Shown piece after piece: positions 6,384 to 39,283 of a DNA stretch of 64,000 nucleotides (its first letter is position 1; every line of letters starts with the position of its first letter). Origin of the DNA: an uncultured Gammaproteobacteria bacterium (GTDB taxonomy: Bacteria; Patescibacteriota; Patescibacteriia; UBA11705; JABHMO01); contig CAZPYM010000001.1 of the NCBI GenBank assembly GCA_964590105.1, positions 302,172 through 366,171 of the forward strand, written 5' to 3'. Under the pieces are notes generated by a model. It was not told where the DNA came from. It saw only the letters and a program-made list of their open reading frames with translations, and ran no database searches. A program made the translations under genes and the position numbers.

Positions 6384-6388
6384 ACAAC

Positions 6389-6706
6389 ATGAAAAAAGTA
6401 TTTTTTATTGTTACTGGAATCGCAAGTCTGTCGGTCATACCAAACCTTTATGTTTTTCTCTCAACTTTATTTTTCATATTTCCTAAAGTTGGAAGGCCTA
6501 ATGACTTTTCTGACGGCTTATTCATTGCCTTAGAAATACTTTTTTCTTTGGTTCCGATATTGTTTTTACTTATTGGCCTGCTAAAAAACAAAAACAACAC
6601 ACTCTCAGGTCTGTTCATGACTGTTGCAATTCTAATAAACATACCAATTTTACTAATTTCACTATATATAGCCGCTGCTCTAATTTTTGGCGCCGGCCCC
6701 CAATAA
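6389..6706 (+). CDS. small hydrophobic membrane protein (105 aa), bracketed by the 66-bp direct repeats
   Basis: Three predicted TM helices (FFIVTGIASLSVIPNLYVFLSTLFFIF, LFIALEILFSLVPILFLLIGLL, LFMTVAILINIPILLISLYIAAALIFGAG). Confidence 0.45.
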   Translation: MKKVFFIVTGIASLSVIPNLYVFLSTLFFIFPKVGRPNDFSDGLFIALEILFSLVPILFLLIGLLKNKNNTLSGLFMTVAILINIPILLISLYIAAALIFGAGPQ

Positions 6707-6745
6707 TTAGCATCCAGTAACTAAAACGGTTAATTTTAATCGCAC

Positions 6746-6810
6746 AAAACACTGAGCAGGAATATAGCGACAAAAACTTTGCTCTCGACACAAAATTATA
6801 TTTAAATTAA
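6746..6810 (+). repeat. right copy of the ~66-bp imperfect direct repeat
   Basis: aaaacactgagcaggaatatagcgacaaaaactttgctctcgacacaaaattatatttaaattaa. Confidence 0.7.
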
Positions 6811-6903
6811 TTGAATAGACATTATTCATAAAACATAAAGCATAGAACATCCGTTAGTCATTTGTAATTTCGGTAACTATTATTTGTAATTTTCAAATAT
6901 TTT

Positions 6904-8112: not shown

Positions 8113-8155
8113 AATATTAAATTTTGAATTTTATATTTCCTTTGTGTTTTAGATT

Positions 8156-9070
8156 TTGAGTTTTGAATTTAATATCTATATGGATTTATCTATTGTAACA
8201 GTCAGCTGGAATGTCAAGGAACTCCTCAACCGAATGATCGACTCGGTTTTTCATTATACGGACGGATTGGATTATGAAGTAATAGTAGTTGACAATGATT
8301 CAAAGGACGGTTCAATTCCGTATTTGCGCCAGCACTACCAGGAATGGATTCAAAATAAAAAACTAAAAATCATTGATAACAAATTTAACGCCGGGTTTGC
8401 CAAAGCAAATAATCAAGGCCTAAAAATAGCTATCGGAAAATATAATTGTTTTATGAATCCGGACATGGAACTGGTGGAAAACAGTTTTTTGAAATTACAT
8501 CAGTTCATGGAACAAACACCAAGCGCCGGTATTTGCACCTGCCGGCTTTTGTACGGCGACAAAACAATTCAGGCCAATGTCAAATCAAATCCAGGTTTTT
8601 GCGATCAATTACTAGTTTTATTAAAATTACACCATTTTCTTTCCTGGCTGCCTTGCCTAAAAAAATATTTGCGCAAAGGGTTTGACTTCACGCAAAAACA
8701 ATATATTGAACAAGCCATGGGCGCTTTCATCTTTACAAGAAAAAAATTAATGGATAAAATAAACGGGTGGGATGAAGACTACTGGCTCTGGTGGGAAGAT
8801 GTAGAGCTCTGCAAAACCGTACAGGAGCAAGGACAGGATATTATTTATCTGCCGATCACTGAAGTGATTCATTATGAAGGAAAAAGTTTTGCCCAAACTC
8901 ATGGACTCAATAAACAAAAAAGGTTTAATAAAGGGATGTTGCTTTATTTCAAAAAACACCATTCCAAGCTTGCCTATATCGCGCTTTGTTTTTTCCAACC
9001 AATAAGTTGGTTTCTGACATTATTAACTCAAACATTAAAAATCAAATCACGCACTCAATCAAAAATATAA
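8156..9070 (+). CDS. glycosyltransferase family 2
   Basis: LSIVTVSWN...EVIVVDNDSKDGS...FAKANNQG is the GT2 signature, including DxD-type motifs. Confidence 0.8.
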   Translation: MSFEFNIYMDLSIVTVSWNVKELLNRMIDSVFHYTDGLDYEVIVVDNDSKDGSIPYLRQHYQEWIQNKKLKIIDNKFNAGFAKANNQGLKIAIGKYNCFMNPDMELVENSFLKLHQFMEQTPSAGICTCRLLYGDKTIQANVKSNPGFCDQLLVLLKLHHFLSWLPCLKKYLRKGFDFTQKQYIEQAMGAFIFTRKKLMDKINGWDEDYWLWWEDVELCKTVQEQGQDIIYLPITEVIHYEGKSFAQTHGLNKQKRFNKGMLLYFKKHHSKLAYIALCFFQPISWFLTLLTQTLKIKSRTQSKI

Positions 9071-9080
9071 ATTTTGCAAT

Positions 9081-9527
9081 ATGATTATTATTGAAAGAAA
9101 CAAAATTCAACATCAACCAATGATCGACGTTATCAATGATTATCATTTTTTAAATGATTTAAGTGCTGCCATTGATGAATACATGCTGGCCAATCAACAA
9201 AAAACATTTGTTGACGGAAAACCAATGCAGGTTTTTTATGTGAGCGGCATGGCCGAGCGGCACCACGAACGGCTGGTTGATTATCTGAATTCCAGGATTC
9301 TAAGAGAAGCGCCCGAAAAAGCAATATTAACCAAAGGTCATTTTGCCAAGTTCCCAACCACTCACTATTGGTTACAAATAGACGATTTAATTGTAGACAT
9401 TACCATAAAACAATTTTGCGACAAAAGTCTTGATATATATGACAGCTTGAAACAATTGCTTGACTATCAATATTTAGTCAGCGACAATCCGCAAAATTCA
9501 ATTTACAACATGTATACTGCCGCTTAA
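9081..9527 (+). CDS. hypothetical protein inside the glycosylation cluster
   Basis: A 148-aa ORF with compact spacing; no recognisable motif. Confidence 0.4.
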   Translation: MIIIERNKIQHQPMIDVINDYHFLNDLSAAIDEYMLANQQKTFVDGKPMQVFYVSGMAERHHERLVDYLNSRILREAPEKAILTKGHFAKFPTTHYWLQIDDLIVDITIKQFCDKSLDIYDSLKQLLDYQYLVSDNPQNSIYNMYTAA

Positions 9528-9530
9528 ATT

Positions 9531-11057
9531 ATGGCTGATATTAAATTTTTCGGCCAAACATTTCGCACTACATTTCTTTTCATCCTGCTGGCGGAGCTGG
9601 TCGTTTTTTTTATTCAATGGATGAAAATCGCCGTAGACCTTGGCGCTTATGCTTATTTTATAATTGTCGGTCTGGTTTTTATTGTCAGCTTATACAGGCT
9701 TGAATATGGCGTTTTTGCGGCGTTGGTTGAGCTTTTCATCGGATCGCAAGGCCACTTGCTGTCAATAAACATTGGTCAATTTGCCGTTTCTATCAGAATC
9801 GGAATTTTTATCGCCGTAATGCTGGTCTGGCTCATCTGGATAGCCCGGAAAAAATTATTTTCGCAAACATTTAAATATTTACGTGAAAACAATAAAATAA
9901 TATTGCTGGCTCTTGTCTGTTTCTGGGGATTGGTTTTCGCTTTGATTCGAGGCAATTCGCCAATTAATATTTTTCTTGATTTTAATGCCTGGCTGTATTT
10001 TTTGTATTTTTTCCCGCTGGTAACCATTTCACAGCAATCCGGACAAATCAATAGGCTTTTACAAATTTTCACGGCCAGCATCACCGCCACGGCAATAAAA
10101 GCCTTAATTTTTCTGTATGTTTTTTCTCACCACTTTGCCAGCATGCGCGACTTTTACAAATGGGGGAGGGACACGCGTTGGGGAGAATTTACTTTGATCC
10201 AGGGAAATTTATATAGAATTTTTTCACAATCGCAAATATTTATTCTGATCGGTTTTTTTATTATAATCGGGTTTCTCATTTTTAAAGGAAAATCAAATTA
10301 CCGCGTGACCAAAAATCAATACCTGGCAATTATTCTTTTTCTTTTACTGACCACAACCATTATCAGTTTATCCAGAAGTTTCTGGGTAGCGCTTATTTTA
10401 ACAGCAATTGTGATTTTGTACATTGCTTTTCGTTATTACAAGTTTAACTGGAAAGATGTCGGCCTTATCACCATTCGATTATTATTTTTAACTGTCTTGT
10501 CATACGGTTTAATCAATGCCATTGTTAGCTTTCCCTATCCAAAAACAGATGCAGATGCTTCGGCCGGCGCGCTCATCAGCCAACGCTTCAGCATCGATGA
10601 CAATGCCCTGTCTAGTCGCTGGAGCCAGCTGCCCGCCTTAACAAAAGAAATAACCAAACACCCGATCATCGGCTCCGGCTGGGGGTCAACTGTGACATAT
10701 TTAAGTCAGGATCCTCGGATTCTAAACGAAAACAACCCTTCCGGACAATACACGACCTTTGCTTTTGAATGGGGCTATTTGGATCTTATTTTGAAAATTG
10801 GACTAATAGGACTCATAATTTATCTGGTATTGCTCTGGTCAATTTTCAAAAACTATTTGGCTCTTTGGAAAAAAAATTCAGACCGCTATTTTCGCGCTCT
10901 GATTATCGGTTTTTTGCTCGGCTTATTTGCTCTGATTATTACTCACGGCTTCAGCCCATATCTGAACCATCCGCTAGGCATTGGCTATATTATCATCCTC
11001 CTAGCCATGCAAGAACCGCTTTCAAAATTAAAATTTGAACCGGAAACACTTCAATAA
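9531..11057 (+). CDS. polytopic membrane protein, O-antigen ligase/polymerase (Wzy_C)-like
   Basis: 508 aa with more than 10 TM helices and a central periplasmic loop, in a GT4-GT2 context. Confidence 0.55.
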   Translation: MADIKFFGQTFRTTFLFILLAELVVFFIQWMKIAVDLGAYAYFIIVGLVFIVSLYRLEYGVFAALVELFIGSQGHLLSINIGQFAVSIRIGIFIAVMLVWLIWIARKKLFSQTFKYLRENNKIILLALVCFWGLVFALIRGNSPINIFLDFNAWLYFLYFFPLVTISQQSGQINRLLQIFTASITATAIKALIFLYVFSHHFASMRDFYKWGRDTRWGEFTLIQGNLYRIFSQSQIFILIGFFIIIGFLIFKGKSNYRVTKNQYLAIILFLLLTTTIISLSRSFWVALILTAIVILYIAFRYYKFNWKDVGLITIRLLFLTVLSYGLINAIVSFPYPKTDADASAGALISQRFSIDDNALSSRWSQLPALTKEITKHPIIGSGWGSTVTYLSQDPRILNENNPSGQYTTFAFEWGYLDLILKIGLIGLIIYLVLLWSIFKNYLALWKKNSDRYFRALIIGFLLGLFALIITHGFSPYLNHPLGIGYIIILLAMQEPLSKLKFEPETLQ

Positions 11058-21262: not shown

Positions 21263-21395
21263 CGCGGAACGTATAACTTGAGTAAACCCAGTTAATTAGG
21301 TTAATTGGTTAATTAAGTTAATTGGGTAATGAGTAAGCTGACTTTCGATTTTAACTTTTCCCTCTTAACTTTTAACTTTTTGCGTCATACTTGTC

Positions 21396-21429
21396 TGCCT
21401 TTGGCAGAGGCGCATCCGCCTTTGGCGGA
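21396..21429. promoter_or_regulatory. two adjacent mini-hairpins (ctgcc-ttt-ggcag and tccgcc-ttt-ggcgga) in the leader of the WecB/NUDIX gene
   Basis: tctgcctttggcagaggcgcatccgcctttggcggaaac, preceded by gttaatt(a/g)g and ttaactttt tandem repeats at 21300-21380. Confidence 0.4.
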
Positions 21430-21462
21430 AACTTTTCCCTTTTGCCTTTCAACTTTTATCTT

Positions 21463-22662
21463 ATGCCATTTCCACCGGAATTTCAAAACAAAGCAATAAT
21501 CCTCGGCGTTACAATTGATGATCGTCCAATGGATTTTGTATTAAATAAAATTGAACAATTTTTGTGTTCAAATGCTCAGCACTCAATTTTCACGCCAAAT
21601 CCTGAAATTTGCCTGCGAGCAGAAAAAGACGAGGACTATCGCTACACTCTGAACACCGCATCAATCAAGATTCCAGACGGATTTGGTTTGAAGCTCGGCG
21701 CTAAAATCCTCGGTCAAAAACTGGAGAATCGAGTTGCCGGCTCTGATCTGACAAAAAAACTTTTGCACAAATATTCAAATGCAAAAACAGAACTTAAACT
21801 TTTTATTGTCCTTAGAACCGACTCGCTATCAAAGGAAAAAGATATAAAACAAATATTTAGTGCAGATTATCCCAATATCAAATTTAAACTTGGAAATATT
21901 GATATAAAAAAACCTGATGATTGCGACAAATTATTAAACGATATTAATTTATTTGAACCACAAATGCTTTTTGTCTGCCTCGGAGCGCCGACCCAGGAAA
22001 ACTGGATTTATAAATATTTAAAACTAATGCCCAGTGTCAGAGTGGCGCTCGGACTTGGCGGCAGTATTGACTTCCTGACCAACAAAATCAAACGCGCACC
22101 AAAAATAATGCGCGACCTCGGAGTGGAATGGTTTTACCGCCTGTATCAGGAACCGAGCAGATTGAAACGGATAAAGAACGCTACCGCTGATTTTCTGCTT
22201 GCTTGCCACAAATGGAAAAAACGTATTACCAATGAATATCGCCTCAATGTGGTTGCCGTAATAAAAAACCGCCAGGGAAAATTTCTGGTGCAAAAAAATC
22301 CGCGATTCAAAGACCACTGGCAATTTCCGCAGGGCGGATTAAATATTGGCGAAGATCCTGATGCTGCCGTGGTGAGGGAAGCCAGTGAAGAAATCGGCGC
22401 GCCTGAACATTTTTTAAAAGTCATAAAAAAAATCCCAGAATCTCATAATTACGATTGGCCGGAATATGGAAAACTTATAAAAGGCTATAAAGGACAACAA
22501 CAAACAGCGTATTTGCTGGAATATTCAGGCAATGAAACTGACATTGACCTATCAGCCAGCCATGAAGCCGAGGAGATCCGCTGGCTTGATAAACAGGATT
22601 TACTCAAAACAATTCACCGTCATCGTCATGAATTTGCCAAAAAAATCATCAAGCACCTCTAA
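21463..22662 (+). CDS. WecB/TagA/CpsF-family glycosyltransferase fused to a C-terminal NUDIX hydrolase
   Basis: The N-terminal part (ILGVTID...IFTPNPEI...DGFGL...CLGAPTQENWI...GGSIDF) matches the WecB/TagA family. The C-terminus carries the Nudix box GGLNIGEDPDAAVVREASEEIG. I used the ATG at 21463, since the ORF upstream of it covers the hairpin region. Confidence 0.75.
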   Translation: MPFPPEFQNKAIILGVTIDDRPMDFVLNKIEQFLCSNAQHSIFTPNPEICLRAEKDEDYRYTLNTASIKIPDGFGLKLGAKILGQKLENRVAGSDLTKKLLHKYSNAKTELKLFIVLRTDSLSKEKDIKQIFSADYPNIKFKLGNIDIKKPDDCDKLLNDINLFEPQMLFVCLGAPTQENWIYKYLKLMPSVRVALGLGGSIDFLTNKIKRAPKIMRDLGVEWFYRLYQEPSRLKRIKNATADFLLACHKWKKRITNEYRLNVVAVIKNRQGKFLVQKNPRFKDHWQFPQGGLNIGEDPDAAVVREASEEIGAPEHFLKVIKKIPESHNYDWPEYGKLIKGYKGQQQTAYLLEYSGNETDIDLSASHEAEEIRWLDKQDLLKTIHRHRHEFAKKIIKHL

Positions 22663-23627: not shown

Positions 23628-23669
23628 TTTAAAAGAAAAGAGCTGTATGTTAGATGCAACATACAGCTC
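23628..23669 (-). terminator. rho-independent terminator downstream of the high-GC 317-aa gene
   Basis: A perfect 12-bp inverted repeat gagctgtatgtt-agatgc-aacatacagctc, followed on the minus strand by ttttctttt. Confidence 0.6.
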
Positions 23670-23734
23670 AATTTGCTTGGAATTTTTTGGGACTGAAACG
23701 TCCCTGGTGGGAGAGAAAGGAAGGAGGGGTGAGG

Positions 23735-24685
23735 CTAGCGGTCGCGGCGGGCGTTCTTGCCGTCGCGCTTCCAGCCCTTCTTGTCGCGCTGACCGATCCG
23801 CTTCTGAAGCTCGTCAACCTTGGCCTGGCCGAGATACTCAGCCAGGGTGCAGGTCGCGGCCTGGCGCTTCTGCTGTCCCTCGCGCTCCTTCTCAGCGAGA
23901 TACTCGGCCTCCTTCGGACCGAAGAACATCTTGTAGCGCAGGAGCCCGAGGTAGGCGTCGCTCGAGTTGAGCGAGACCTCGTACTCCTCGCCACGCGCGT
24001 TGCGGTTCTTGCTCGCGATCGACGTGAAGATGTCGACATCCGACTCGAGCACATACGCCCCGTACGATCCGAACTTGCCGAAACGCCGCGTGACGAGGCG
24101 AAGCCCCTTCACGTGGGGCACGCCGCCGTTGCCGTTCGTGCTCTGCTCGCGGCAGAATCCACGCTCCCACTCGAAGAATTCCGAGGGGTTGGAGGGCGCC
24201 GTATCCTTCAGGCCGGCGGCATACGCCACCTCGAAGGCCTCGGTCCGCTCGGAGCACCGCTCGATGTTCTCGATGGGCGCCGTACCGACGATCGGCTTCA
24301 TCAGCCCGAAACCGGCCCGAACGAGCTTCGGCATCGGGGTCCAGACGGATCCCTCACCGAACCGGTCGGTGACCAGCTTGGCGTACTGTTCCTTCTTCTC
24401 CGCATCCTTGTCCGCCGCCGCCTGATAGGCGACAATCGCATCACAGAGCTCCATCTTCTGGAAGCGCCCTCCGGCGACCCGCAGAGACTCCATGACCTTC
24501 TGCGCCGCTTCCGGCGTCAGGAGCAGATAGTCGTCGTCCACTCGGATAACGACCGCCTTGGAAATCGGCCTCACCTCGAGACCGCCCTCGCGCTCCAGGA
24601 CGGTGATGTCCTTGGGAACACCGGGAGTGGGGATCGAGCCGCCAAACTCCGCCACGAATGCCTTGAAACCAACGATCGTTTTCAT
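23735..24685 (-). CDS. hypothetical protein (317 aa) with foreign codon usage (GC ~65%, GC3 near 100%) and a C-terminal Lys/Arg-rich tail
   Basis: RBS ggagga 6 nt upstream of the ATG at 24685 (MKTIVGFKAFVAEFGG...). Amino-acid composition is balanced, and the protein ends ...QRDKKGWKRDGKNARRDR. The long plus-strand ORF over the same region is L/R/A-rich antisense junk. Confidence 0.6.
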   Translation of the reverse strand: MKTIVGFKAFVAEFGGSIPTPGVPKDITVLEREGGLEVRPISKAVVIRVDDDYLLLTPEAAQKVMESLRVAGGRFQKMELCDAIVAYQAAADKDAEKKEQYAKLVTDRFGEGSVWTPMPKLVRAGFGLMKPIVGTAPIENIERCSERTEAFEVAYAAGLKDTAPSNPSEFFEWERGFCREQSTNGNGGVPHVKGLRLVTRRFGKFGSYGAYVLESDVDIFTSIASKNRNARGEEYEVSLNSSDAYLGLLRYKMFFGPKEAEYLAEKEREGQQKRQAATCTLAEYLGQAKVDELQKRIGQRDKKGWKRDGKNARRDR

Positions 24686-25041
24686 CACTTTCCTCCAGTT
24701 AGTTGTAAAAGATACTTCCTCATCCAACAGCACAATTCTTATCTCAAGTCCTTGTTGCGATAAAAACTGTGCTGTCAAATAATAACAAATTTTACACGAT
24801 ATATAACAGGGAAGTATAGCATACATCAAATATTTTGTCAAGAGGTGTTATTTGAAGTTTTATTATTACACTAAAATTAGACAAACAAACAAGTTACACC
24901 TAAGTAACATTTCAGAGGTTATTAACTGTTTACAATACGCATAATTTGAGCTATAATTTTGGGGAAGCTGAAAAAGAAGCACTTTGTTATTTCCGCTTTA
25001 TTGTTTGTGATTTGTTATTTGTAATTTATTATTATCCATTT

Positions 25042-28383: not shown

Positions 28384-31300
28384 TTATTTTACCACTGCCA
28401 TCCAGTCAGCTTCGGTTGAAGGAAACTTGCCGTTCGCAGTTTTGAAATCCTTGACTGCTTGCAATCTTTCAACCGATGTTTTGGCCTTGCTGGCCGCTGT
28501 ACTGCCGTATGAGATGAAAGTTACAACATTCCAGCCCTCTGCATCCGGAGATTGGCCGGCGAGAGCGATATAATCATTTACAGCTGTGATTTCATTTTTC
28601 AGGTCTCTGTCAGCACTCACTGGCAAAGCTGGCACTGCGTTATCTTTTGGCGCTTCTACAACTGGCGCTGCTGGTACTGTCTCAACTGGCGCTGGTGCCG
28701 GAGCTGTCATAGAAACACCTGCATAAGCAATTCCGCGCAATACAGACCACATGAAACCGGTATTTGGCATTTGCTTGAATGATTTAGAGAAGGTTGCTAA
28801 AGCAGTCTTTTCCTTAGCCAATTCACGCGCTTCAGGTCGCAGATAGTAGGCGACAGAGTGGATAAACTTTTCTTCAGCCGGTTTGCTAAAATCAACCAAT
28901 CGGCCGAACACCTTTACAAAAGCTTTCAAAGCTTCTGCCTCGCGTCCGATTATTCTAGCGGGAGTTGTTCCTTCAGCCATCTTGGCCACGCTCTCCCAAT
29001 CAGAATCAGTACTGGGGATATGATTGTAAACAGCTTTATAATCTTCAAGCAATCCCACTCTTTCACGTTCCGCCATTTTCTTGACTTTATCAGTTGTTCC
29101 ATAAGTCAGGAAATCTACAACTCGCCATTCATTGGCCGTAGCCGGACTCTTGCCGACAAGTTTAGCATAATCTTTTACGCCTTGAATTTCCTTCTTAAGT
29201 TCTCTTGCCGCCGGTTTTACCGGCACCACATTTGTCAGGGTAACGACTTCTGAAGCAACTTCCTTGGAAACTTCTTTAACTTCTGTTTTGACAACCGTAG
29301 TTATTTCTTCCACTGTTGTCGTGACTGCTTCATCCGTGGTCGTTGTGGTAGTTGTTGTCGGTTCTATTATCGTCGTTGTAGTGGTTGTCGCGGCCGCTCC
29401 GCCGGTGGTATCAACCGCGCGCCGTGTTGTTGTAGCGGATGCCGCGACTAGAGGCGGATGAGTGATTGAAACCGAGGTCAAGTGAGTAATCTTTCCCATG
29501 CAATAATTTTCAGTCGTGTTGCAGGTTTGATTATCAAGCGGCATAAACGAGTCAGTCGTATCATCGTAATATGACAATGTGAGCAAAGATTCATCGGTTA
29601 CGCCCGCGCTTGTTAATTCAGCGGCCGTATAGTGGAGAATAATCTCAGCGCCTTCTCCGTTCAATTGGTTCACATCCTCACCTCCGGCTTTGGCTGTAAT
29701 TTCAACTTCAGTCCCGACTAAAGGCAACGTTGTATCGAGCGCCGGCAAGTCCACCTGCTGAAAGGTCAACGTGCCGCTAGAATTCTGCCCACCGATAACT
29801 CCGGTGCCGGCGCTAATTTCAAGACCGGTGTTATTTGCGTCGTTTACTACTACACCGCTCGTTGGAACAATCGTTCTGCTATCAACGCTTTTTATATCTG
29901 TCGGATCAGATGTCAACGTGATGTCCTTGTTGCTGAGCGAACTACCACTAACCGCGACAGTGGCCGATCGCGTTGTTTCAGCGTGCAATGGGCCATCCGC
30001 AATCACTGACCATGTGCCATCTGTTACTGATAACTGGTAGCTACCATCTTGCTGAATTGATCCCTTGGCTTTTGCTCCAGTAGTCGCCTCGGTGGCGTAG
30101 ACAAATCCGCCAAGATTCATAGGCGTTGATCCGTCAGATTCGTAAATCGTGCCTGAAATTGAATTGCCTTTTTCAACCAAATCATTGTCAATCTGAATAT
30201 CTTCGTCTGTGGTATTGCCATCAAAATCAAAATTTACATTTCCCGTAACCTCCAAGTTTGAATATTTTGCCGGCGTGCCGTAATCCTTGTGTTCGGCTTT
30301 AATGCTGTATGTGCCTTCTTTGACACTCATTGAATAGTCGCCGCTGGCGTCCGTGGTTGTTTGCTTTACCAATCCCGTTGTTTCATTAATAAGCAAAACC
30401 GCGGCATTGGCTATGGGATTATTGGAATTGTCAAGAACTGTGCCTAAAACCGTGCGCATTGTCTGCGCCGAAAGATCAACAGTGGTACTTTGATTTGAAG
30501 TTGACAAATCAATTGTTGAAGACGGCGAAAAATCTCCCATGCCGTCAACAAACACCATCAATCTATATGTTCCGGCAGGAACGCTGATAGTCTGGCTCTG
30601 GCTCAAATCGGGAAGCGGCATGCCTCGGCGCACAGCTCCACGGCTGTTGGTCGTGGCTGACCCGGCTATTTCCTTTACTTCTATAAACCCGCGCATATTT
30701 GAAGTTCCGCCGGTAAAAGCGACTGTCAATGTTTTCAAACTTGCCAAATCATAACTGATATTCACGGTTTGATTGCCTCCGTTTACAGTAACATTTTGTC
30801 CTAGTTCTCCGTAATCAGGCGACCACATTGACACTCTGTATGTACCGTTGCCGGCTTTGATTGAATAAGAACCGTCATTGGCCGTTGATTCATTGCGATG
30901 GTATCCTCCGCTCGGCCAGTCATTAACCGTATCCCAGGCTTCTACCATTATCGGAACACTACCCTGTGCTGTACCGCCGATTGAAACGGAGCCGGAAATG
31001 GTGTAGCAGGTGGAAGATGTCGGCTGAAGATTTTCAGTCGGCTTATTCGCGCCCGAAACTGTAATAGCCTTGGTAATTGTGCCACAAGTATCAGTTCCCG
31101 ATGGCATTTGCGCCGTCACTGTCCAAGTGCCGTCGCCAACATTCAGCATATAGTCGCCGTCCGAATCCGACATTGTTTGCGCAGACTGGTGCGTCGTTGT
31201 TTCGTTTGCCATTACGCTGGTGTAGTTGAGAGGATTGCCGCTCAAATCCATTACTTTTCCTGAAATCATGTAGTCGGCTTTATACATTTTGATTAAGAAC

Positions 31301-34300
31301 GGAGCGGCGGTAGTAACATAATCGCCTTCAAGATTAACATCGCAAGTGGTATTGCCGTCGGAAACCCCAACCGTATTATCCTTTACTGCTACCGACCTAA
31401 ACGGAGCCTCACCGATTCCGGGTTTATGAGCTCCGATTTCATAATTTCCATTGGCCGCGACTTTGAGAACAAAACTGCCGTCCGCGAGGGATTGCGTATG
31501 AGAGCCCATGCCACCGAAACCCATTGGCTGGCTGGCCCAAATTTCAACATTTTGCATTACATTATACACTTTCGCGCCAGAAGAAAAAGCTTGATTCATG
31601 CCGTTTACCAATTGAACTGTCGCGCCGCTGATTGACAATATTTTATCATTTTTTGTGTTCGTGCCGTCAGTCACAACTATTGAATCATTGGCATTAAATC
31701 CCGTGCCACTCGCCAAAGTCAGGCTGGTCGCGCTCGAAGTGTAATTCGCGCCGAGCGTAGTTTCCTTTGACACAACGCATCCGAGTATTTCTTTACTAGC
31801 GCTATTGATGTTAAAACTTAATTCAGTAATTGTTGCATTCGTATCATTGCGCTTAATAATTGGAGTTCCGCCAATACCGCTGACTTCAACCTGAACATTT
31901 GTCGGCGGCATCCAATCAGGCATCGGAGGCGGTCCCATCATCGGCCCCTTTGGCATAGCCGGCCCAATGCCAACCATATATATGCCGTTGGAAGGGAAGT
32001 ATAGAGTGGAACTGTTATTAGTGACTGCGCCGGTCAAAGTAGTGGTATTTACCGCGAACGAATTAGGCCCGCCCGCGAAAATATCAAGATCTTCTCCGTC
32101 AGCGCTGAATGTCCCGGACACCTTGACTGTCAATGATGCTGAATTGGACGCTGAAAATTTAGCGAAGGTTAGCGCTCTCGTCAAAGTCTTTGTTCCCGAA
32201 TTCCAGTTTTCGCCCGAACCGGGCACACAAATTGGTTCCGGATTCATCTGTCCGCTGTATTTATTTGCGCCAAGAGTAACCGTCGGCTCGCTAAAAATAT
32301 TATAACAGCCATCCGGCAAATTTGACCAAGTCTGCGTTCCCGTGCCATTGGCAATGTTAACTGTCGCGTCCAAAGGACCGGTCATGGGAGATCCCATCAT
32401 CAATTGAAAAGTGCCGGTGCCGCTTTCAGCCGCGATTGTCGCCGTGATATTATTTGCTCCGGCCGCGTTGATAAAGAAAGGCATTGAAGTCATGCTGGAC
32501 ACGTTCGTGCCGTCCGCTTTGTACGCTTTCATGTCAACGGTGTAGCCATTGGAATTGAAATCCTGAACTTTTGTCGGATTGACGATGTTTTTCACTTCAA
32601 AATGAAAGTAATCAGGATCGCCGGTTTGTCCGCCGTTCGTATTCAGCCACAGAGTCATTGTCTGACCTGAAACCGTCACGCCGTCGCTCGCCGCGCCGCC
32701 CTTTGTCGCGGCGCCCGCGCCGTCGTCAGCAACTCCCGAAGTCTTGAATTTGACTATTGACGGACCGCTCATATTCAGATCATTTTTATTGGGATTATAC
32801 GGATCCGGAATCGCCGAAACAATGTTAACGCCTTTTGGAAATGTCAATTTAATATATGCTCCGTCGTCAAGCGCATTGGCTGATTTGCCCGATGGCGGAA
32901 TAGGGAAGTCAATCATGTATGTGGTCGTAGCGCCGGCCATCATATTCATGGGCATGGCTCCGACTCCTCCCATCATCATGGCGTCTTTTTCTGAAAAACC
33001 TCCAAATCCTGTAGGCGCGCCCGTCATCATGGCGCCGCCCATGGCCGAAGGACCGGAAAGTCCGCCGCAAGCGGGTCCGATCATACCGCCTGTTTTCGCC
33101 TCATCGCGCAAAACTCCCTTGGCGGAATTAGCCGTAGCGTCAATTGGATTATTCGACAGATCCATAACATTTGAAACAGTAATAATAAATTGATCTGTTT
33201 CTTTTGTCGCACCGGTGAAGGATAGACCCTTAATTTTGACGGTGTTTGTTTCATAATCATAATCAAACGACACGCCGGCCGCTCCAAGATTTTCAGTACT
33301 ACCGGTGCCGTCGGCGCCAAAAGTCAATGCGTAGTTGCCCGACTTCAGTACGCTCCCTGTCCAAAGCGAAGCATTGGACGAGGCGTCACTTTGCTTCAAC
33401 GCGCTCATTGGTCTTGAGAATGTCACCGCGCACTGGTATCCGTCGCAATTCGCGACTTCAACTCTGGGCTTGGTTGTGTCAAATGTAGACGTCATGGTAA
33501 ACGAGCGCGTCAAAGTGGTTGCTCCGCTCGGATTACCATACAAGTCTTTTATTCCACTTGTGCCGCCAAGAGTAATAGTCAAGGTATATTTCATACCCGG
33601 CGTCAAGCCGGTTGTCGGGATTACCTTGATACTCTGGCTCATTGAATCATATTTTACTACGGCCGGAATTGTTGACGTTCCGGTTTTCAATGTAACGGTG
33701 GCCGTGTTAACATTACCCGGTTCCAGCGATTCATTGAAACCAATATCCACGAAGCCGAAATCCAATGGCACTCCCGTGGCATTATTGTCCGGCCAACTGC
33801 CATTAATGCCGGGAGCAGTTGAATCAGTAACGTCCGCGACTGTAAAATTGACCATAAATTGATTGGCTCCGGGATCGTTTGGATTGCCAAGCGTTACACC
33901 CGAAGACGCTCGGATTCCCGCCTTTACCCTTATTTCATACTCGCCGGCCATTAAATTTGAAGACAAATTCATTATGGCGAAAAGCTTATCGTTCGAGGTT
34001 GTCACTGAACTTATATAAGTACTGGTAACATCTGTAAAAGAATTACCGCTTTTTTGAAATAACTTGAATGTGCCCGTGTTAACGCTACTTGAATCAAGCG
34101 ATTCGCTGAATTCAAACATCATTTTTGACAAATTTTTTGATACACTCCACGCGCCCGACGACGGCTGCGCGCCTTTCACAAAGAAAGGAGAATAGTCTCC
34201 GCCGCTCCATTGGCCTGTAGTCGTGTTAAAATTATCCGCCATTGTCATATAATCAGCATTATCGGTCATAGATCCAAAATTACCGGCATCATAATATGCG

Positions 34301-37056
34301 GCATCTTCCGTAAAGCCAAATCCGCTGGAGCCGCTAAAATTCATATCGGTTGACTGCGTAGTGAAAGTGAACGAATGTCCTCCTCCCGGCCTGCCGCCCT
34401 GAACTGAATTGCCGGCCATATCTATAACAGCAGGAAGGATTTCCACAATATATTGCGTGTTCTTAACCAAAGGCTCCACCATATCAATTACCGCCACCGG
34501 GGTACTGACAGATGCACCAGGCGCGTAGAAAGTGGCGCCGCGATTGCTGGCTCCGAGACCGGTGTCAATTGTTACGGCGTAATTAGTAACGGGTTCAACT
34601 TGTCCCGTAAAGTTATTCATTTTTTTCAACAATATATTTGACGTAGTCAGTTTTCCCACGTTCATTGGTTTATTAAATCTAATAAATATAGGTGCTCTGT
34701 CAATCACTATGTCGATCGGCGCGCTGTTCATGCCGTCCGATGGAGTAGTTTCTATAACCATAGGCGCGCTGGAATCTCCGCCATGAGCCCCTACGCCGCT
34801 ATCTAGACAAAACTGCCAGCCGGTTGACTGCGGATTATTACTGCTGACGCCAACTCCCCAAATTGTACTTTCATGATAACCTCCCGCATTCGCGCTCAAA
34901 TTCCAAACGCCGTCAAACACGCCGTTTAGCGTGAATGTTCCGGCTTGATCGCTGACAATGGAGGTAACGGCGCTAATGCCAGTACCTTCAATTCTAACGG
35001 TTGCGCCGTCAATGCCAGTCACGCAATCGCTTTGGTATACGCGGCCGGAAATTTTTCTAGCTCCGCTGGTCGTTGAGACATTAATATGATATGGCATGGC
35101 TTGGGCCAGCACTTCCGTATTTGCCACGGGATCCGCGGCCGAATATCCTTCTTCGCTCATGCCGTCAACCGCCTTAATATAATAATCTATTCCTGCCGCG
35201 GTTACCGCTGACGCAGGTATTGTGAATATTGTACTTGAACCTGAAGAACTTCCGGAAACACAGCTTCCCGGCCAACCGGCTGTGCCGGCCTTGTAGCATA
35301 GTGTAGTAGTAATCTGTTGCGAAGTGCTTTCAACATCATATATTTCAGCCAGAAGTTTAATTTCAGTTGAAACCACAGCCGTGGAAATCGGGCTGTGCAT
35401 AACATGAGGTGGAGTGTTTAAGTGCGTTTCGCCGCCCAGTTGAAAAACCTCTACGCCGCTAGTTGATTTTTGAGGATCTGACAAAGTGCGCGAAACAAAA
35501 TCATACATATTATCATTGCTATTATAACCATTTCCGATTGCCACGTCTGAAGTAACCATAGTCGCACTTGTTGATGAATATACCGCTTTTCGTTCAATAC
35601 TGCCGTTTGCCAAGGGCGCAGGGTTGAACGGACTGGTTTGATAAACCCTGACCCCATGTCCGACGCCCACGATATCCCTTACCGTATTATTTTCATCAAT
35701 TAAAAATATTGTATTACCGGAATCCAAATCTACTCCTGTAAACGCAGCGTCAGCACTCAGGCCTTGCCCATCAACGCTCTGGTCAAAACTATTAGCGTCA
35801 TTAGCCAATAAATAATATCCGCCTTGCGCCATAGTAGTCCCGCCTGCGATCGTAGCCAAAACAGTGTATGTATTGTCAACTCCTTCTATACCAGGCAGAT
35901 CTGTCAAGACGGCAACTTTCCAGCCGGCGATGGATTGCGGGCTCAATCCAATATTGTAAAGCTCAATGAATTCATCCGTTGCAGCGGCGCCGGCCAATTG
36001 AATTTCAGAAATCAGAATGCTGGTGTTCGGCCACATCCAAAACAAAGGAGCCGGATCGCTATACGGCATGCCGTTGGCAACGCTTTTTGGCGCAATCGAG
36101 GGATTGGTGCTTATTTGCAGGCTATCGGTCATAGTCATTGAAATCCTGGCGCCGGCATGCGCGACCACGGAAACTCTGCTAGGATCACTGCCATCGCGAG
36201 TCGCCCTGATTATTGACTGATTATCGTTTGCACCTGTCATTAAAGTATACCGAGCGCAACTTCCGGGGGTGACTTCTTCGTCGCATTCCACCGAATCCGC
36301 GGTTACTGGCATATTAAAATCAATTATTAAATCTCTATATGACCCATAATACAAGCCATCCACTCTAGGCGGCGACATATAAGTGTCTCCGTCTCCGCCG
36401 CCGCCGGCGCTATTTATCGTATCCGTGCTAACCTGCGTGATCGTCGGGGAAGTGCCGCTGGTAACAACCGTGCCGCTCGCGCCGCCTAAGAAAGTAAATC
36501 GAAATGATTTTCCGGAGGGCGGAGTGTCGTGCATTTTCATGTGAAGAAAATAATTGCCGCTACCCGCTGAATATGAAGTTGGCAATGTGTCATCAACAAC
36601 GTCAAGAGTAACATCATAAGTGCCGTCGCCATTGTTTGTCCATGAAGGCTTTGTTTCCCAAACAAGAACGCTGTCTCCGGAGCCGGGATCCATCCAGCCA
36701 TTACCATTACCGTCTTTATAAATGCATAGTCCCTGATCATCACTGCCGGCCGCCGCCGCTTCATTAAACGGCGCCAATACCAAAGCCGGATCAGGAGTGC
36801 CATAGAGACCGTCAAAACGAACTTTAATTGATTTTAGCTGCTCGCCGGCAGTACCGGTAATCTTCAACGCGGCAACACTGCTCATGAAACCGCCATATGC
36901 ATTCATGTTTGGCGGAATCATAAACTCCGAAGTTACTGTTACACCAGCTTGAGCCGGAAATAGGGGAGTGAGCACGCCGGCCAATCCCATGGCCCAGACT
37001 ATGGTGGTCATGGCGATAAAGCCAGTAAATAATTTATTTTTTGCGATTTTCATCAT
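28384..37056 (-). CDS. giant secreted surface protein (2890 aa) with Ig-like/carboxypeptidase-regulatory-like beta domains, Met/Gly/Pro-rich low-complexity segments, a poly-Thr linker and two C-terminal ~75-aa tandem repeats
   Basis: A single uninterrupted ORF. Signal peptide MMKIAKNKLFTGFIAMTTIVWAMGLAGVL. Many G/T/S/N-rich beta-type repeats (e.g. GRVYQSDCVTGIDGATVRIEGTG). Low-complexity segments GPACGGLSGPSAMGGAMMTGAPTGFGG...MMMGGVGAMPMNMMAGA and MPKGPMMGPPPMPDWMPP, and a TTTTTTIIEPTTTTTTTT linker. The C-terminal repeats are (V/N)KDYAKLVGKSPATANEWRVVDFLTYG and VNDYIALAGQSPDAEGWNVVTFISYG. Confidence 0.85.
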   Translation of the reverse strand: MMKIAKNKLFTGFIAMTTIVWAMGLAGVLTPLFPAQAGVTVTSEFMIPPNMNAYGGFMSSVAALKITGTAGEQLKSIKVRFDGLYGTPDPALVLAPFNEAAAAGSDDQGLCIYKDGNGNGWMDPGSGDSVLVWETKPSWTNNGDGTYDVTLDVVDDTLPTSYSAGSGNYFLHMKMHDTPPSGKSFRFTFLGGASGTVVTSGTSPTITQVSTDTINSAGGGGDGDTYMSPPRVDGLYYGSYRDLIIDFNMPVTADSVECDEEVTPGSCARYTLMTGANDNQSIIRATRDGSDPSRVSVVAHAGARISMTMTDSLQISTNPSIAPKSVANGMPYSDPAPLFWMWPNTSILISEIQLAGAAATDEFIELYNIGLSPQSIAGWKVAVLTDLPGIEGVDNTYTVLATIAGGTTMAQGGYYLLANDANSFDQSVDGQGLSADAAFTGVDLDSGNTIFLIDENNTVRDIVGVGHGVRVYQTSPFNPAPLANGSIERKAVYSSTSATMVTSDVAIGNGYNSNDNMYDFVSRTLSDPQKSTSGVEVFQLGGETHLNTPPHVMHSPISTAVVSTEIKLLAEIYDVESTSQQITTTLCYKAGTAGWPGSCVSGSSSGSSTIFTIPASAVTAAGIDYYIKAVDGMSEEGYSAADPVANTEVLAQAMPYHINVSTTSGARKISGRVYQSDCVTGIDGATVRIEGTGISAVTSIVSDQAGTFTLNGVFDGVWNLSANAGGYHESTIWGVGVSSNNPQSTGWQFCLDSGVGAHGGDSSAPMVIETTPSDGMNSAPIDIVIDRAPIFIRFNKPMNVGKLTTSNILLKKMNNFTGQVEPVTNYAVTIDTGLGASNRGATFYAPGASVSTPVAVIDMVEPLVKNTQYIVEILPAVIDMAGNSVQGGRPGGGHSFTFTTQSTDMNFSGSSGFGFTEDAAYYDAGNFGSMTDNADYMTMADNFNTTTGQWSGGDYSPFFVKGAQPSSGAWSVSKNLSKMMFEFSESLDSSSVNTGTFKLFQKSGNSFTDVTSTYISSVTTSNDKLFAIMNLSSNLMAGEYEIRVKAGIRASSGVTLGNPNDPGANQFMVNFTVADVTDSTAPGINGSWPDNNATGVPLDFGFVDIGFNESLEPGNVNTATVTLKTGTSTIPAVVKYDSMSQSIKVIPTTGLTPGMKYTLTITLGGTSGIKDLYGNPSGATTLTRSFTMTSTFDTTKPRVEVANCDGYQCAVTFSRPMSALKQSDASSNASLWTGSVLKSGNYALTFGADGTGSTENLGAAGVSFDYDYETNTVKIKGLSFTGATKETDQFIITVSNVMDLSNNPIDATANSAKGVLRDEAKTGGMIGPACGGLSGPSAMGGAMMTGAPTGFGGFSEKDAMMMGGVGAMPMNMMAGATTTYMIDFPIPPSGKSANALDDGAYIKLTFPKGVNIVSAIPDPYNPNKNDLNMSGPSIVKFKTSGVADDGAGAATKGGAASDGVTVSGQTMTLWLNTNGGQTGDPDYFHFEVKNIVNPTKVQDFNSNGYTVDMKAYKADGTNVSSMTSMPFFINAAGANNITATIAAESGTGTFQLMMGSPMTGPLDATVNIANGTGTQTWSNLPDGCYNIFSEPTVTLGANKYSGQMNPEPICVPGSGENWNSGTKTLTRALTFAKFSASNSASLTVKVSGTFSADGEDLDIFAGGPNSFAVNTTTLTGAVTNNSSTLYFPSNGIYMVGIGPAMPKGPMMGPPPMPDWMPPTNVQVEVSGIGGTPIIKRNDTNATITELSFNINSASKEILGCVVSKETTLGANYTSSATSLTLASGTGFNANDSIVVTDGTNTKNDKILSISGATVQLVNGMNQAFSSGAKVYNVMQNVEIWASQPMGFGGMGSHTQSLADGSFVLKVAANGNYEIGAHKPGIGEAPFRSVAVKDNTVGVSDGNTTCDVNLEGDYVTTAAPFLIKMYKADYMISGKVMDLSGNPLNYTSVMANETTTHQSAQTMSDSDGDYMLNVGDGTWTVTAQMPSGTDTCGTITKAITVSGANKPTENLQPTSSTCYTISGSVSIGGTAQGSVPIMVEAWDTVNDWPSGGYHRNESTANDGSYSIKAGNGTYRVSMWSPDYGELGQNVTVNGGNQTVNISYDLASLKTLTVAFTGGTSNMRGFIEVKEIAGSATTNSRGAVRRGMPLPDLSQSQTISVPAGTYRLMVFVDGMGDFSPSSTIDLSTSNQSTTVDLSAQTMRTVLGTVLDNSNNPIANAAVLLINETTGLVKQTTTDASGDYSMSVKEGTYSIKAEHKDYGTPAKYSNLEVTGNVNFDFDGNTTDEDIQIDNDLVEKGNSISGTIYESDGSTPMNLGGFVYATEATTGAKAKGSIQQDGSYQLSVTDGTWSVIADGPLHAETTRSATVAVSGSSLSNKDITLTSDPTDIKSVDSRTIVPTSGVVVNDANNTGLEISAGTGVIGGQNSSGTLTFQQVDLPALDTTLPLVGTEVEITAKAGGEDVNQLNGEGAEIILHYTAAELTSAGVTDESLLTLSYYDDTTDSFMPLDNQTCNTTENYCMGKITHLTSVSITHPPLVAASATTTRRAVDTTGGAAATTTTTTIIEPTTTTTTTTDEAVTTTVEEITTVVKTEVKEVSKEVASEVVTLTNVVPVKPAARELKKEIQGVKDYAKLVGKSPATANEWRVVDFLTYGTTDKVKKMAERERVGLLEDYKAVYNHIPSTDSDWESVAKMAEGTTPARIIGREAEALKAFVKVFGRLVDFSKPAEEKFIHSVAYYLRPEARELAKEKTALATFSKSFKQMPNTGFMWSVLRGIAYAGVSMTAPAPAPVETVPAAPVVEAPKDNAVPALPVSADRDLKNEITAVNDYIALAGQSPDAEGWNVVTFISYGSTAASKAKTSVERLQAVKDFKTANGKFPSTEADWMAVVK

Positions 37057-37204: not shown

Positions 37205-37456
37205 TCATTTTTTCTCAAGAATCTGATTCATTCTCGTATTCATCAAAAACACTTGGCTGTAAATTTGATTAAGCCGCATGGAAAGAGAATCGCGCGTTTC
37301 CGCGTAACTTTTTTCAAGCCGTGCCATGTGTACGACCAAACAGACTATAATTGCAAACTGCGCGATAATTAAAATGGCGGCCAATAAATAGACCGGCCAT
37401 TTTTTGTGGCAAAAAAACACATACCCCCCTCCGACAAGCTGCCAAAATTTTTTCAT
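37205..37456 (-). CDS. small membrane protein (83 aa)
   Basis: One TM helix (VYLLAAILIIAQFAIIVCLVV) followed by a short coiled-coil-like tail. Confidence 0.4.
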   Translation of the reverse strand: MKKFWQLVGGGYVFFCHKKWPVYLLAAILIIAQFAIIVCLVVHMARLEKSYAETRDSLSMRLNQIYSQVFLMNTRMNQILEKK

Positions 37457-37613: not shown

Positions 37614-38591
37614 CTAATCATTGTCGCTATGACATTTTTCATAAACATCGCGCAATTTTTTATTGGTCACATGCGTGTAAATTTGGGTAGTGGAAATATC
37701 TTCATGGCCCAGAAATTCCTGCACCAGGCGTAAATCAACGCCCTTGTTCAGCAAATCCGTGGCAAATGAATGGCGCAGGGTATGCGGCGTTGTATTAAGG
37801 GGCAATCCGGCAAGCTTGACATACTTTTTTACGATTCTTTCAACTGAACGAGAAGTTAGTCTGCGCGAACCGATTTCTGACGCAGTAGGGGAGTAATTTA
37901 TGAATAAGGCTTTATCAACATCATTTCGATTATCTAGATAATTCCTAATTGCCGAAAGCGCCCGCAAAGAAAAATATATTGTTCTGGTTTTGCTTCCCTT
38001 GCCCACGATATTTAATTCCAAAACTTGTCTAAAATTTCTAATATTAAAGTCATCGCGATTTAATTTCACAACTTCTGAGACACGGAGTCCTGTTGAAAAT
38101 AATGTTTCAAGAATCGCTTTATTGCGAAGCGAATTTAAATCTAATTTTACTGCGCAATCAAGTAATTTTTTTACTTTTTCAAGAGTAAGAAAATGCACGG
38201 ACGGTTTTTTTGTTTGTTTTGCAAGCTGGATCTTGCTGGCGGGCAGGGCCGTGATATCGCGCACCGCAAAATATTCCAATAGCCCGCGCAGAGCGATTAA
38301 ATAAATATTTTGCGTTCTTTTTGTCAAACTTTGTTTTGTTTTTGCTGATAAAGTTTTGCGCGACAAAAAAATTCTGTATTTCCAGATTATTTCGCTGGTG
38401 AGCTGATGGGGGAGCAAATCTTGCATTTTATTTTGGATAAGCCAACGCTTGAAGCGATCTAAACATCGGGAATAATTTTCCTGCGTTTGTTTTGCCAAGC
38501 CTTTTTCTACGTCAACATAATCAAGAAAATCATTGATTTGTTTGAGAATGGGAAGTTGAGAGTTGGTGAGCATAAATACAAGAAATAACAA
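37614..38591 (-). CDS. tyrosine recombinase, XerC/XerD family
   Basis: N-terminal SAM-like domain, and the C-terminal catalytic region HTLRHSFATDLLNKGVDLRLVQEFLGHEDISTTQIYTHV (R..H..R..Y). Confidence 0.85.
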   Translation of the reverse strand: MLFLVFMLTNSQLPILKQINDFLDYVDVEKGLAKQTQENYSRCLDRFKRWLIQNKMQDLLPHQLTSEIIWKYRIFLSRKTLSAKTKQSLTKRTQNIYLIALRGLLEYFAVRDITALPASKIQLAKQTKKPSVHFLTLEKVKKLLDCAVKLDLNSLRNKAILETLFSTGLRVSEVVKLNRDDFNIRNFRQVLELNIVGKGSKTRTIYFSLRALSAIRNYLDNRNDVDKALFINYSPTASEIGSRRLTSRSVERIVKKYVKLAGLPLNTTPHTLRHSFATDLLNKGVDLRLVQEFLGHEDISTTQIYTHVTNKKLRDVYEKCHSDND

Positions 38592-39231
38592 ATTACAATT
38601 AACAAACTACAAACAATGCATTTAGCCGCTAAGTGGCGTGTCGCACAATACTAATAAATACGCACGGGGCACAATTTTATTATACATAATTCAACACACT
38701 TATTAAAATCTATAATCAATACTGTCTGTGGACAAGTCAGCATTTCTTGTTCCTTGGACTGCACACTATCCGTTTTTTATGCTAAACTTAGGAAAAAGAC
38801 AAAGGAATCAGGTGCTCTGCTATTCAAACAAAATTTAAGACGCTTAGATCACAATTTTAGGCCTTGTTTTTTGTGTAAATTTAGCCAAGGCGTAACCATA
38901 TAATAAATCATTAAAGTAGGGCCATCCTGCATCAATTGATAGTGCTATATCACGTAAATTTACAATTATTAAACCTTGAGGAAAGATCCTCTAAGGCGAT
39001 GTCATCAAAATATATCTGCGCGCTAATTTATTATTTTAAAAACTTTAATTATTATTATACAATTTATGAAAATTTTTAAATGAAATTTAACTGCCCTATT
39101 TAATACCACATTAATGCAACGTAAATTATTTTACACCACTCTGCCCCAATATTTCCTTAACTCTTTGTGTCGTAAAATATTTCAAGATGTTCAAAAAGAG
39201 GGGCCTGCATAAATCCGGATTTAACTTAAAA

Positions 39232-39261
39232 TAAAAAAACGCTGCAGATTTCTGCAACGTT
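39232..39261 (-). terminator. rho-independent terminator after ftsA/pilM-like
   Basis: On the minus strand: aacgttgcagaaatctgcagcgttttttt. Confidence 0.55.
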
Positions 39262-39283
39262 GTGTATGTTGTCCTTCGATTCC

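Follow-up and report, generated by a model that had tools for sequence, protein, structure and literature searches.

The subject of this study is a giant gene on the minus strand of a 64,000-nucleotide stretch of DNA from an uncultured bacterium (hereafter the window; contig CAZPYM010000001.1 of assembly GCA_964590105.1, positions 302,172 to 366,171), together with the unnamed helical domain with which the gene product ends (Table 1; all positions are window coordinates). The list of open reading frames (ORFs) and the translation give one uninterrupted frame at this locus, and this frame of 2890 amino acids (aa) is a real gene. Identical copies of its product (P0001) are recorded on four contigs, the two shown being from two different samples, and nine full-length, colinear orthologues of 2758-3258 aa share 44-61% identity with it. 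An assembly or frameshift artefact was rejected on both counts, and the concern attached to the original prediction for this locus, that the frame might be a frameshifted fusion of several genes, is ruled out by the nine colinear orthologues. Two of these nine are labelled Candidatus Falkowbacteria, and the NCBI name for one of them is only "carboxypeptidase regulatory-like domain-containing protein". The giant gene has a GC content of 0.48 versus ~0.40. The excess sits at codon position 2 (0.49 versus ~0.31), with GC at codon position 3 near the local range; the raised GC is therefore a matter of amino-acid composition (Gly/Ala/Thr/Ser-rich), and horizontal transfer of the gene was rejected as an explanation. 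No DNA tandem repeats worth naming were found within the gene.

Table 1. The giant gene, the parts of its product and other genes of the window that are discussed in the text
Feature	Position in window	Strand	Remarks
Complete giant surface-protein gene	28384..37056	minus	ATG start, 2890 codons; stop codon 28384-28386
Signal peptide, aa 1-37	36946..37056	minus	K-rich n-region, hydrophobic core, PAQA/G cleavage-type site
LTD (lamin-tail domain), aa 344-466	35659..36027	minus	Pfam PF00932, 41-47 bits, cut-off 34.3
CarboxypepD_reg, aa 669-742, and Big_5 Ig-like modules, aa ~761-1187	33496..35052	minus	Pfam PF13620, PF13205
Gly/Met-rich block 1, aa ~1325-1376	32929..33084	minus	Predicted disordered linker, ends in conserved strand motif PMNxxAGATTxY
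Beta-sandwich core, aa 1377-1765	31762..32928	minus	Conserved; AlphaFold2 model and Foldseek, adhesin/pilin-like fold
Pro/Met loop GPAMPKGPMMGPPPMPDWMPP (block 2), aa ~1699-1719	31900..31962	minus	Predicted loop between two strands, pLDDT 58-73
CarboxypepD_reg/transthyretin-like cluster, aa ~1931-2276	30229..31266	minus	Pfam PF13620, six stretches, 118 bits total
Thr/Glu/Val-rich spacer, aa 2541-2606, including TTTTTTIIEPTTTTTTTT	29239..29436	minus	From sequence
Full copy of unnamed C-terminal domain, aa 2607-2782	28711..29238	minus	Four ~40-aa helix-loop-helix repeats (predicted), pI 9.5
Pro/Ala-rich linker, aa 2783-2806	28639..28710	minus	From sequence
Half copy (hairpins 1-2 only), aa 2807-2890, ends at C-terminus	28387..28638	minus	Profile match
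Xer-type tyrosine recombinase	37614-38591	minus	557 bp upstream of giant gene
Gene-free stretch, 692 bp	38592-39283		No ORF above 49 aa, no Rfam match
GT4	6904-8112	plus	Putative surface-polymer/glycosylation cluster
GT2	8156-9070	plus	Putative surface-polymer/glycosylation cluster
Wzy_C ligase-like (O-antigen ligase/O-oligosaccharyltransferase-like) membrane protein	9531-11057	plus	Same GT cluster
WecG/TagA-family glycosyltransferase-NUDIX hydrolase fusion	21391-22662	plus	Earlier called "WecB"

Analysis of the translation indicates that the product is a secreted, fibre-like surface protein of roughly 300 kDa from an ultra-small Patescibacteria (candidate phyla radiation, CPR) bacterium of the Falkowbacteria type. 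The frame and all motifs quoted in the original prediction are present, and its assignment as a surface protein stood as well; there is a signal peptide, no other hydrophobic segment, and modules that are only of the extracellular beta-sandwich type. The sole hydrophobic segment is the N-terminal one at aa 9-33, and outside it the protein contains no hydrophobic 19-mer, a C-terminal membrane segment included. Cleavage would occur at PAQA/G, a motif that is kept in the orthologues as PAQAA, PARAA or PANAA. The ~300 aa before the LTD (aa 38-343) are without a Pfam match, and the region annotated with Big_5 comprises three such stretches. Conservation within the giant-protein family is highest in the middle region, which has no annotation. 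For aa 1320-1765, an AlphaFold2 model based on 16 homologues is all-beta with a mean predicted local distance difference test score (pLDDT) of 75.9, and its top Foldseek matches in the Protein Data Bank (PDB) are SdrD, BcpA, PitA, SpaC, T-antigen and the BSP domain of Bap (E 6e-9 to 1e-5). Template-modelling scores against these adhesins and pilins reach only 0.15-0.21; such low values reflect differing domain arrangements and are to be expected of rods with many domains. The body as a whole (aa 37-2540) is acidic, with an isoelectric point (pI) of 4.4. No LPXTG motif (pattern LP.[TSA]G) occurs anywhere in the protein and, as there is no C-terminal membrane segment either, covalent anchoring of the sortase type is out.

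Between this body and the C-terminal domain lies a low-complexity spacer that includes a poly-Thr run, TTTTTTIIEPTTTTTTTT, at aa 2557-2574, which is encoded by mixed ACN codons without a DNA tandem repeat. The run is not conserved, the orthologues having spacers of Gly/Pro/Ala/Val, Thr/Val/Asp or Glu/Val, and family-wide the 60 residues upstream of the C-terminal domain are enriched in Thr, Glu and Pro. Thus, the conserved feature is a flexible low-complexity spacer and not the Thr tract.

The C-terminus consists of a full copy of an unnamed domain, a linker and a half copy. The original prediction had described two ~75-aa repeats at this place. Their cores (aa 2626-2653 and 2825-2851) are indeed there, and the half copy aligns with aa ~2616-2692 over 77 aa (BLOSUM62 local score 159), but the size of the unit had been misjudged; it is a 175-aa four-hairpin domain followed by a half copy, with the former repeat 1 corresponding to hairpins 1-2 of the full domain and hairpins 3-4 overlooked. 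We built a family profile of 179 positions (alignment A1) from 30 diverse members, the window sequence among them; the full copy scores 228 bits against it (aa 2607-2781), and the half copy matches positions 6-88 with 57 bits. The domain follows the repeat pattern E..A...[FY]..x[YF]G+.P....[DE]W..[VI]..IAYG, and all six pairwise hhalign comparisons of its four repeats are significant (probability 95-98.6%, E 1e-15 to 4e-8). An AlphaFold2 model based on the 30 members is all-alpha, with eight main helices arranged in four hairpins, a pLDDT of 96.7 and a predicted template-modelling score of 0.90. Since the model is this confident, the domain is to be regarded as folded and not as low complexity. 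In domain numbering, the residues Y46, R60, W81, R113, Y131, R134, R138, W164, R168 and Y172 vary little or not at all among its members.

None of the searches connected this domain with a known one, including the known anchoring domains that the original prediction had named as possible matches. There is no Pfam or NCBIfam match to the domain; within the C-terminal 291 aa, Pfam at E values up to 10 gave no SLH, LysM, CWB2, PG_binding, SH3b, choline-binding or GW match, and its only matches there, DUF3853 (E 0.14) and T2SSG (E 0.11), are at chance level. The 30 members of the family likewise gave no SLH match at E values up to 1. Sequence searches of the PDB with the single sequence and with the profile returned chance matches only, Foldseek found no match to the domain model (best E 1.5 in PDB and 0.27 in BFVD), and a literature search found no description of the domain. 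Judged by its sequence the domain thus represents a new domain family, and its model probably represents a new fold.

The family is large. A phmmer search with the window sequence alone, in a HMMER scan that covered 1.84 billion cluster representatives (clusters at 50% identity), recovered 1090 clusters at E<=1e-3, 792 at E<=1e-10 and 20 at E<=1e-30, with host proteins of 107-3508 aa among the best 150 of the 1090. A separate profile search added 334 proteins from Falkowbacteria, Parcubacteria, Portnoybacteria and unclassified Patescibacteria; the named ones are all "hypothetical protein", and in none of the 334 does Pfam annotate the domain region. Before the full HMMER scan and the profile search found the family, a word-indexed search for homologues of the 291-aa C-terminus had returned nothing; the word-index pre-screen evidently missed it, possibly with candidates matching the Pro/Ala linker crowding the relatives out. 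At the DNA level, a degenerate pattern for the last hairpin matched at least 120 loci, nearly all of them in metagenome-assembled genomes (MAGs) of Patescibacteria, and at least 12 MAGs have two or three separate domain loci even though this pattern is restrictive. Overall, these sequence matches describe a large, unannotated and Patescibacteria-centred family. Many domain-bearing records (loci L009, L011, L013, L017, L018 and others) are titled "uncultured Gammaproteobacteria bacterium" (third-party annotation assemblies); as the other matches are Patescibacteria, these titles are suspect and probably wrong.

The position of the domain and the company that it keeps are both distinctive. In 152 of 159 proteins no more than 5 aa separate its end from the C-terminus, and in an independent genome sample 104 of 111 ORFs have it no more than 8 aa from the stop codon; in the remaining seven of the 159 it lies 13-120 aa from the end. 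The full copy in the window protein is followed by 108 residues, and about the same holds for the orthologues P0002, P0003, P0004 and P0010. Of 141 host proteins, 112 carry a hydrophobic segment at the N-terminus, and other Pfam domains in 98 representatives are all extracytoplasmic: fn3, Pur_ac_phosph_N, CHB_HEX_C, CARDB, LTD, cohesin, dockerin, TIG, HYR, CBM_4_9 and Ig-like. The window protein has both family traits, an N-terminal export signal and a module that ends at the last residue. Domain and passenger also differ in charge, with a median pI of 9.3 for the domain versus 4.2 for the remainder of the host protein. In 96% of proteins the domain has the higher pI of the two, and the window protein shows the same contrast, with 9.5 for the full domain and 4.4 for the body. 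Copy number varies, half copies occur, and up to 5 matched stretches are found in one protein.

Additional information comes from distant homologues that share the LTD/Big_5/Gly-Met/PMPDW/CarboxypepD_reg body of the giant protein. The C-terminal slot of these proteins is occupied by PG_binding_1 in P0012, P0018 and P0019 (two copies in P0019) and by two SH3b domains in P0016, while P0013 and P0008 carry the helical domain. The last ~55 aa of P0011 form a Trp-rich tandem repeat, NWWHNVIDNISSLKDDAGKWGSKLKDGIGNWWHDVIDNISRWKDDAGNWWDKVTEK, in the same slot; it is without a Pfam match and may be another anchoring motif. The helical domain itself is diverse. In a major subfamily (P0008, P0013 and the consensus type) the "G+.P....W" turn of the first hairpin is replaced by a longer helix (KRNLxKEQ...NFITYGT), and the ending of P0008/P0013-type members is very conserved (RNLxSEKAAIxxFKxIYxxxPxxAxDWDxVRAIAYSGAxR). 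The copies of the Falkowbacteria giant type form a divergent branch of the family.

These features lead us to infer that the C-terminal domain anchors proteins non-covalently to the cell envelope and is new among domains of this kind, a reading that we consider probable. The original prediction had raised the idea of a novel envelope-anchoring module, and it gains strong support from the family-wide comparison. The near-terminal position, the extracytoplasmic passengers, the presence of several loci per genome, the basic charge, the exchange of modules in the C-terminal slot and the internal repeats all suggest an anchor. More specifically, the contrast between acidic passenger and basic domain suggests an anionic polymer as ligand, and the four repeats, variable copies and half copies resemble multivalent wall-binding repeats. 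Swaps of anchoring domains between homologous surface proteins are documented for SLH/CWB2 systems (10.1101/2025.04.02.646754). According to this proposal the domain would bind the cell's own envelope non-covalently, the likely ligand being peptidoglycan or an anionic wall or membrane polymer that is contacted through four repeated basic/aromatic sites. Envelope binding by the C-terminal domain would make the C-terminus the fixed end of the giant protein; the Thr-rich spacer would then span the wall, and the N-terminal region would be held away from the cell by the chain of beta-sandwiches, as an adhesin or as a surface-coat fibre.

Several observations weigh against an anchoring role. The domain has no homology to any characterised wall-binding domain, its matches to the pseudomurein-binding repeat PMBR being below threshold (at most 20 bits versus 24.9) with an hhalign probability of 1% against PeiP. 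Sorting signals, too, typically have such an almost obligatory place at the C-terminus, and the half copy of the window protein has a pI of 5.2. A few proteins contain PG_binding_1 or SH3b alongside the domain, which may therefore have a ligand other than peptidoglycan. A broader version of the anchoring reading is that, in a large share of the Patescibacteria, surface display generally relies on the four-hairpin domain as anchor, and that the domain constitutes a new wall-binding fold for a lineage-specific envelope polymer. The domain is seen in Falkow-, Jackson-, Uhr-, Kerfeld-, Buchanan- and Parcubacteria, and we regard the case for this broader version as evenly balanced.

A different role for the domain would be in protein-protein contacts, that is in oligomerisation or in an S-layer lattice with the giant protein as coat subunit, or in attachment of an episymbiont to the wall of its host. 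CPR cells have been reported with surface layers and with an episymbiotic lifestyle, and conservation of the giant gene, with the same gene order in its lineage, also counts in favour. The exchange for PG_binding_1 or SH3b fits binding to a host wall equally well as binding to the cell's own, and the layout of a passenger with a terminal module resembles that of S-layer proteins (10.1101/2025.04.02.646754). This role is nevertheless unlikely since the domain is common to hundreds of unrelated, mostly small passengers, as would be expected of a general retention tag more than of a lattice contact, and since the charge dichotomy between domain and passenger points to an anionic polymer ligand.

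The domain could instead be a sorting or export signal that is read by a dedicated machinery, like the C-terminal domain of the type IX secretion system or sortase signals, and that is possibly removed after export. Its location within a few residues of the C-terminus in ~95% of proteins and its attachment to many unrelated secreted passengers are what such a signal would look like. However, the ~108 residues that follow the full copy in the window protein and its four orthologues, and the seven of 159 proteins in which the domain is set back from the end, do not fit this role, nor do the variable copy number, half copies and up to 5 stretches, which are typical of binding repeats. Homologues have binding domains (PG_binding_1, SH3b) and not sorting signals in the equivalent slot, and no such machinery was seen among the conserved neighbouring genes. 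We therefore consider a sorting signal quite unlikely and retain the anchoring role for the C-terminal domain.

The remaining alternatives concern other parts of the locus. The Met-rich blocks of the giant protein have been suggested to bind copper or other metals, and they could be Cu(I) or other metal sites through which the protein sequesters metal or buffers redox at the surface. In block 1, where GAMMTGAPTGFGG and MMMGGVGAMPMNMMAGA are located (aa 1341-1376), Met-richness is found in 16 of 16 homologues, including those of ~30-40% identity, with 4-15 Met per 30-53 residues. Block 2, which contains MPKGPMMGPPPMPDWMPP at aa 1701-1718, has the consensus GPAMPKGPMxGPPPMPDWMPP and is position-conserved, with five Met columns kept in 7-15 of 16 homologues. 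Both kinds of conservation would be compatible with metal sites. On the other hand, block 1 is predicted to be disordered (AlphaFold2 pLDDT 25-30 over aa 1320-1363), conservation of its individual Met positions is loose (2-12 of 16), and it differs in length between homologues. Across homologues block 1 contains hardly any His and few Cys, the 53 residues of the window block including 11 Met, 1 Cys and no His, and there are no copper-handling genes near the giant gene. A flexible Gly/Met hinge accounts for the same data, which makes metal binding highly doubtful. We read both Met-rich blocks, as modelled, as hinge or loop elements. Conservation of Met composition in a predicted disordered Gly-rich linker down to ~30-40% identity is itself unusual.

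It had also been proposed that the giant gene is subject to recombination-based variation. The Xer-family recombinase and the gene-free region of ~690 bp invoked for this are both present near the gene, the recombinase upstream of it and the gene-free stretch beyond. A phase- or antigen-variable locus under control of this recombinase is nonetheless extremely improbable because the Xer/giant arrangement is conserved at 48-61% identity with the Xer gene next to genes of cell division (ftsQ and one that matches the Pfam models PilM_2 and FtsA), which fits a housekeeping XerC/D, because the best inverted repeat in the promoter region is 26 nt at 73% in AT-rich DNA, because the giant gene lacks DNA tandem repeats, and because the identical protein occurs on four contigs with the two shown being from two different samples. 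With only such weak AT-rich inverted repeats present, an invertible promoter was rejected. The conserved order in the orthologous loci is Xer, small ORF, giant gene, M23 peptidase and GluRS, plus WecG. The 692-bp gap contains a terminator-like hairpin for the upstream gene, and no RNA genes were found in the gene-free regions of the window.

The small ORF in this order encodes 83 aa with one hydrophobic segment (37205-37456, minus strand, between Xer and the giant gene); ORFs of 71-84 aa without a Pfam match occupy the same slot in L001 (9637-9852), L003 (9621-9869) and L005 (9699-9953). Co-transcription of the small ORF with the giant gene, or a functional link between the two, is possible.

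Genes for glycosylation and surface polymers are present in the window. A plus-strand cluster at 6904-11057 contains the GT4 gene, the GT2 gene, a 148-aa ORF and the Wzy_C gene, and could, going by these families, glycosylate proteins or build a surface polymer. The original prediction placed such glycosyltransferase and ligase-like genes adjacent to the giant gene and linked them to O-glycosylation of the Thr-rich spacer. They actually lie 17-21 kb from the 3' end of the giant gene, behind fmt, priA, clpB and other housekeeping genes, and O-glycosylation of the spacer is a weak possibility. The supposed WecB gene has a different identity, that of a WecG/TagA-NUDIX fusion. A WecG gene lies near the giant gene in both orthologous loci with enough flanking sequence, with the NUDIX part in L003 and without it in L005. 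Enzymes of the WecG/TagA type make the ManNAc linkage unit of wall teichoic-type polymers, and for this reason the gene is a candidate for making the ligand of the anchor.

Two other observations were made in the vicinity. A plus-strand ORF at 23654-24763 has a GC content of 0.61 (0.80 at codon position 1) and a translation rich in Leu, Arg and Gly; it resembles an antisense shadow of the 368-aa ORF at 23735-24841 on the minus strand, which reads as a real protein and has unannotated proteins at the equivalent place in L003. On the Falkowbacteria contig L005 (GCA_043798985.1), a RuBisCO large-subunit homologue (5491-6837) is located ~3 kb upstream of the giant gene, and no such homologue is present in the corresponding part of the window.

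How Patescibacteria build their envelope and retain proteins there is unclear (Castelle et al.). A domain that occurs in more than 1000 protein clusters, in the slot that peptidoglycan-binding modules occupy in relatives, offers a concrete handle on the CPR surface. What is new here is the domain family, for which we infer a function in non-covalent surface display in Patescibacteria. The domain would predict which proteins are displayed on the cell, could act as an affinity tag to label or capture uncultivated cells, and could be used as a probe for finding the wall polymer that it binds. Should it prove to be a general anchor, the list of its carriers would define the surface proteome of uncultivated cells. 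The giant protein may in addition supply fibres or a coat through which the cells make contact with hosts.

The giant protein itself is one more instance of an already known type and is fibrillar-adhesin-like. It has the tandem stalk-type beta-sandwich modules by which fibrillar adhesins are recognised (three Big_5, six CarboxypepD_reg and an LTD). Like Gram-positive adhesins and pilins such as SdrD, Bap, BcpA and SpaC, it combines a signal peptide, a chain of Ig-like beta-sandwiches, a low-complexity spacer and a C-terminal anchor. Unlike the LPXTG-anchored Gram-positive adhesins, its candidate anchor is an unnamed helical domain.

Among known anchors, SLH (PF00395) is likewise a helical repeat module that is found at a protein terminus in many secreted proteins per genome, and it holds proteins non-covalently on a wall polymer as is proposed for the present domain. 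The two differ in that neither Pfam nor Foldseek connects them, in that SLH has three ~55-aa repeats versus four ~40-aa hairpins, and in that the present domain is mostly C-terminal with records that are nearly all from Patescibacteria. PG_binding_1 (PF01471) and SH3b (PF08239) share with it the C-terminal slot of distant giants. SH3b is a beta barrel, and the Pfam model of PG_binding_1 has 57 positions versus a 175-aa bundle of eight main helices, with unrelated sequences. PMBR (PF09373), known from PeiW/PeiP and MTH719, offers a further likeness in its short tandem repeats; its units are 30-35 aa in length and stand in tandem, with PeiW and PeiP each having four, of which at least three are needed for binding (PMC2989375). 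The theoretical pI of the whole PeiW/PeiP enzymes (~9.4) is also similar to that of the domain. The sub-threshold PMBR matches occur in nine of the 30 domain members, the window copy having none, and span 12-22 residues at the aromatic-x-x-x-G-basic-x-P turn. Kinship with PMBR was rejected on these scores and on an hhalign probability of 1.1% against the four PeiP repeats (phage psiM2). After the turn PMBR has a short conserved stretch (REPRVVF/REPRIVYV) where the present domain has a predicted second, Trp-containing helix, and we attribute the likeness to convergence on a helix with a G-basic-x-P turn after it. By analogy, then, the candidate anchor would work like SLH, CWB2 and PG_binding modules, yet it belongs to none of these families.

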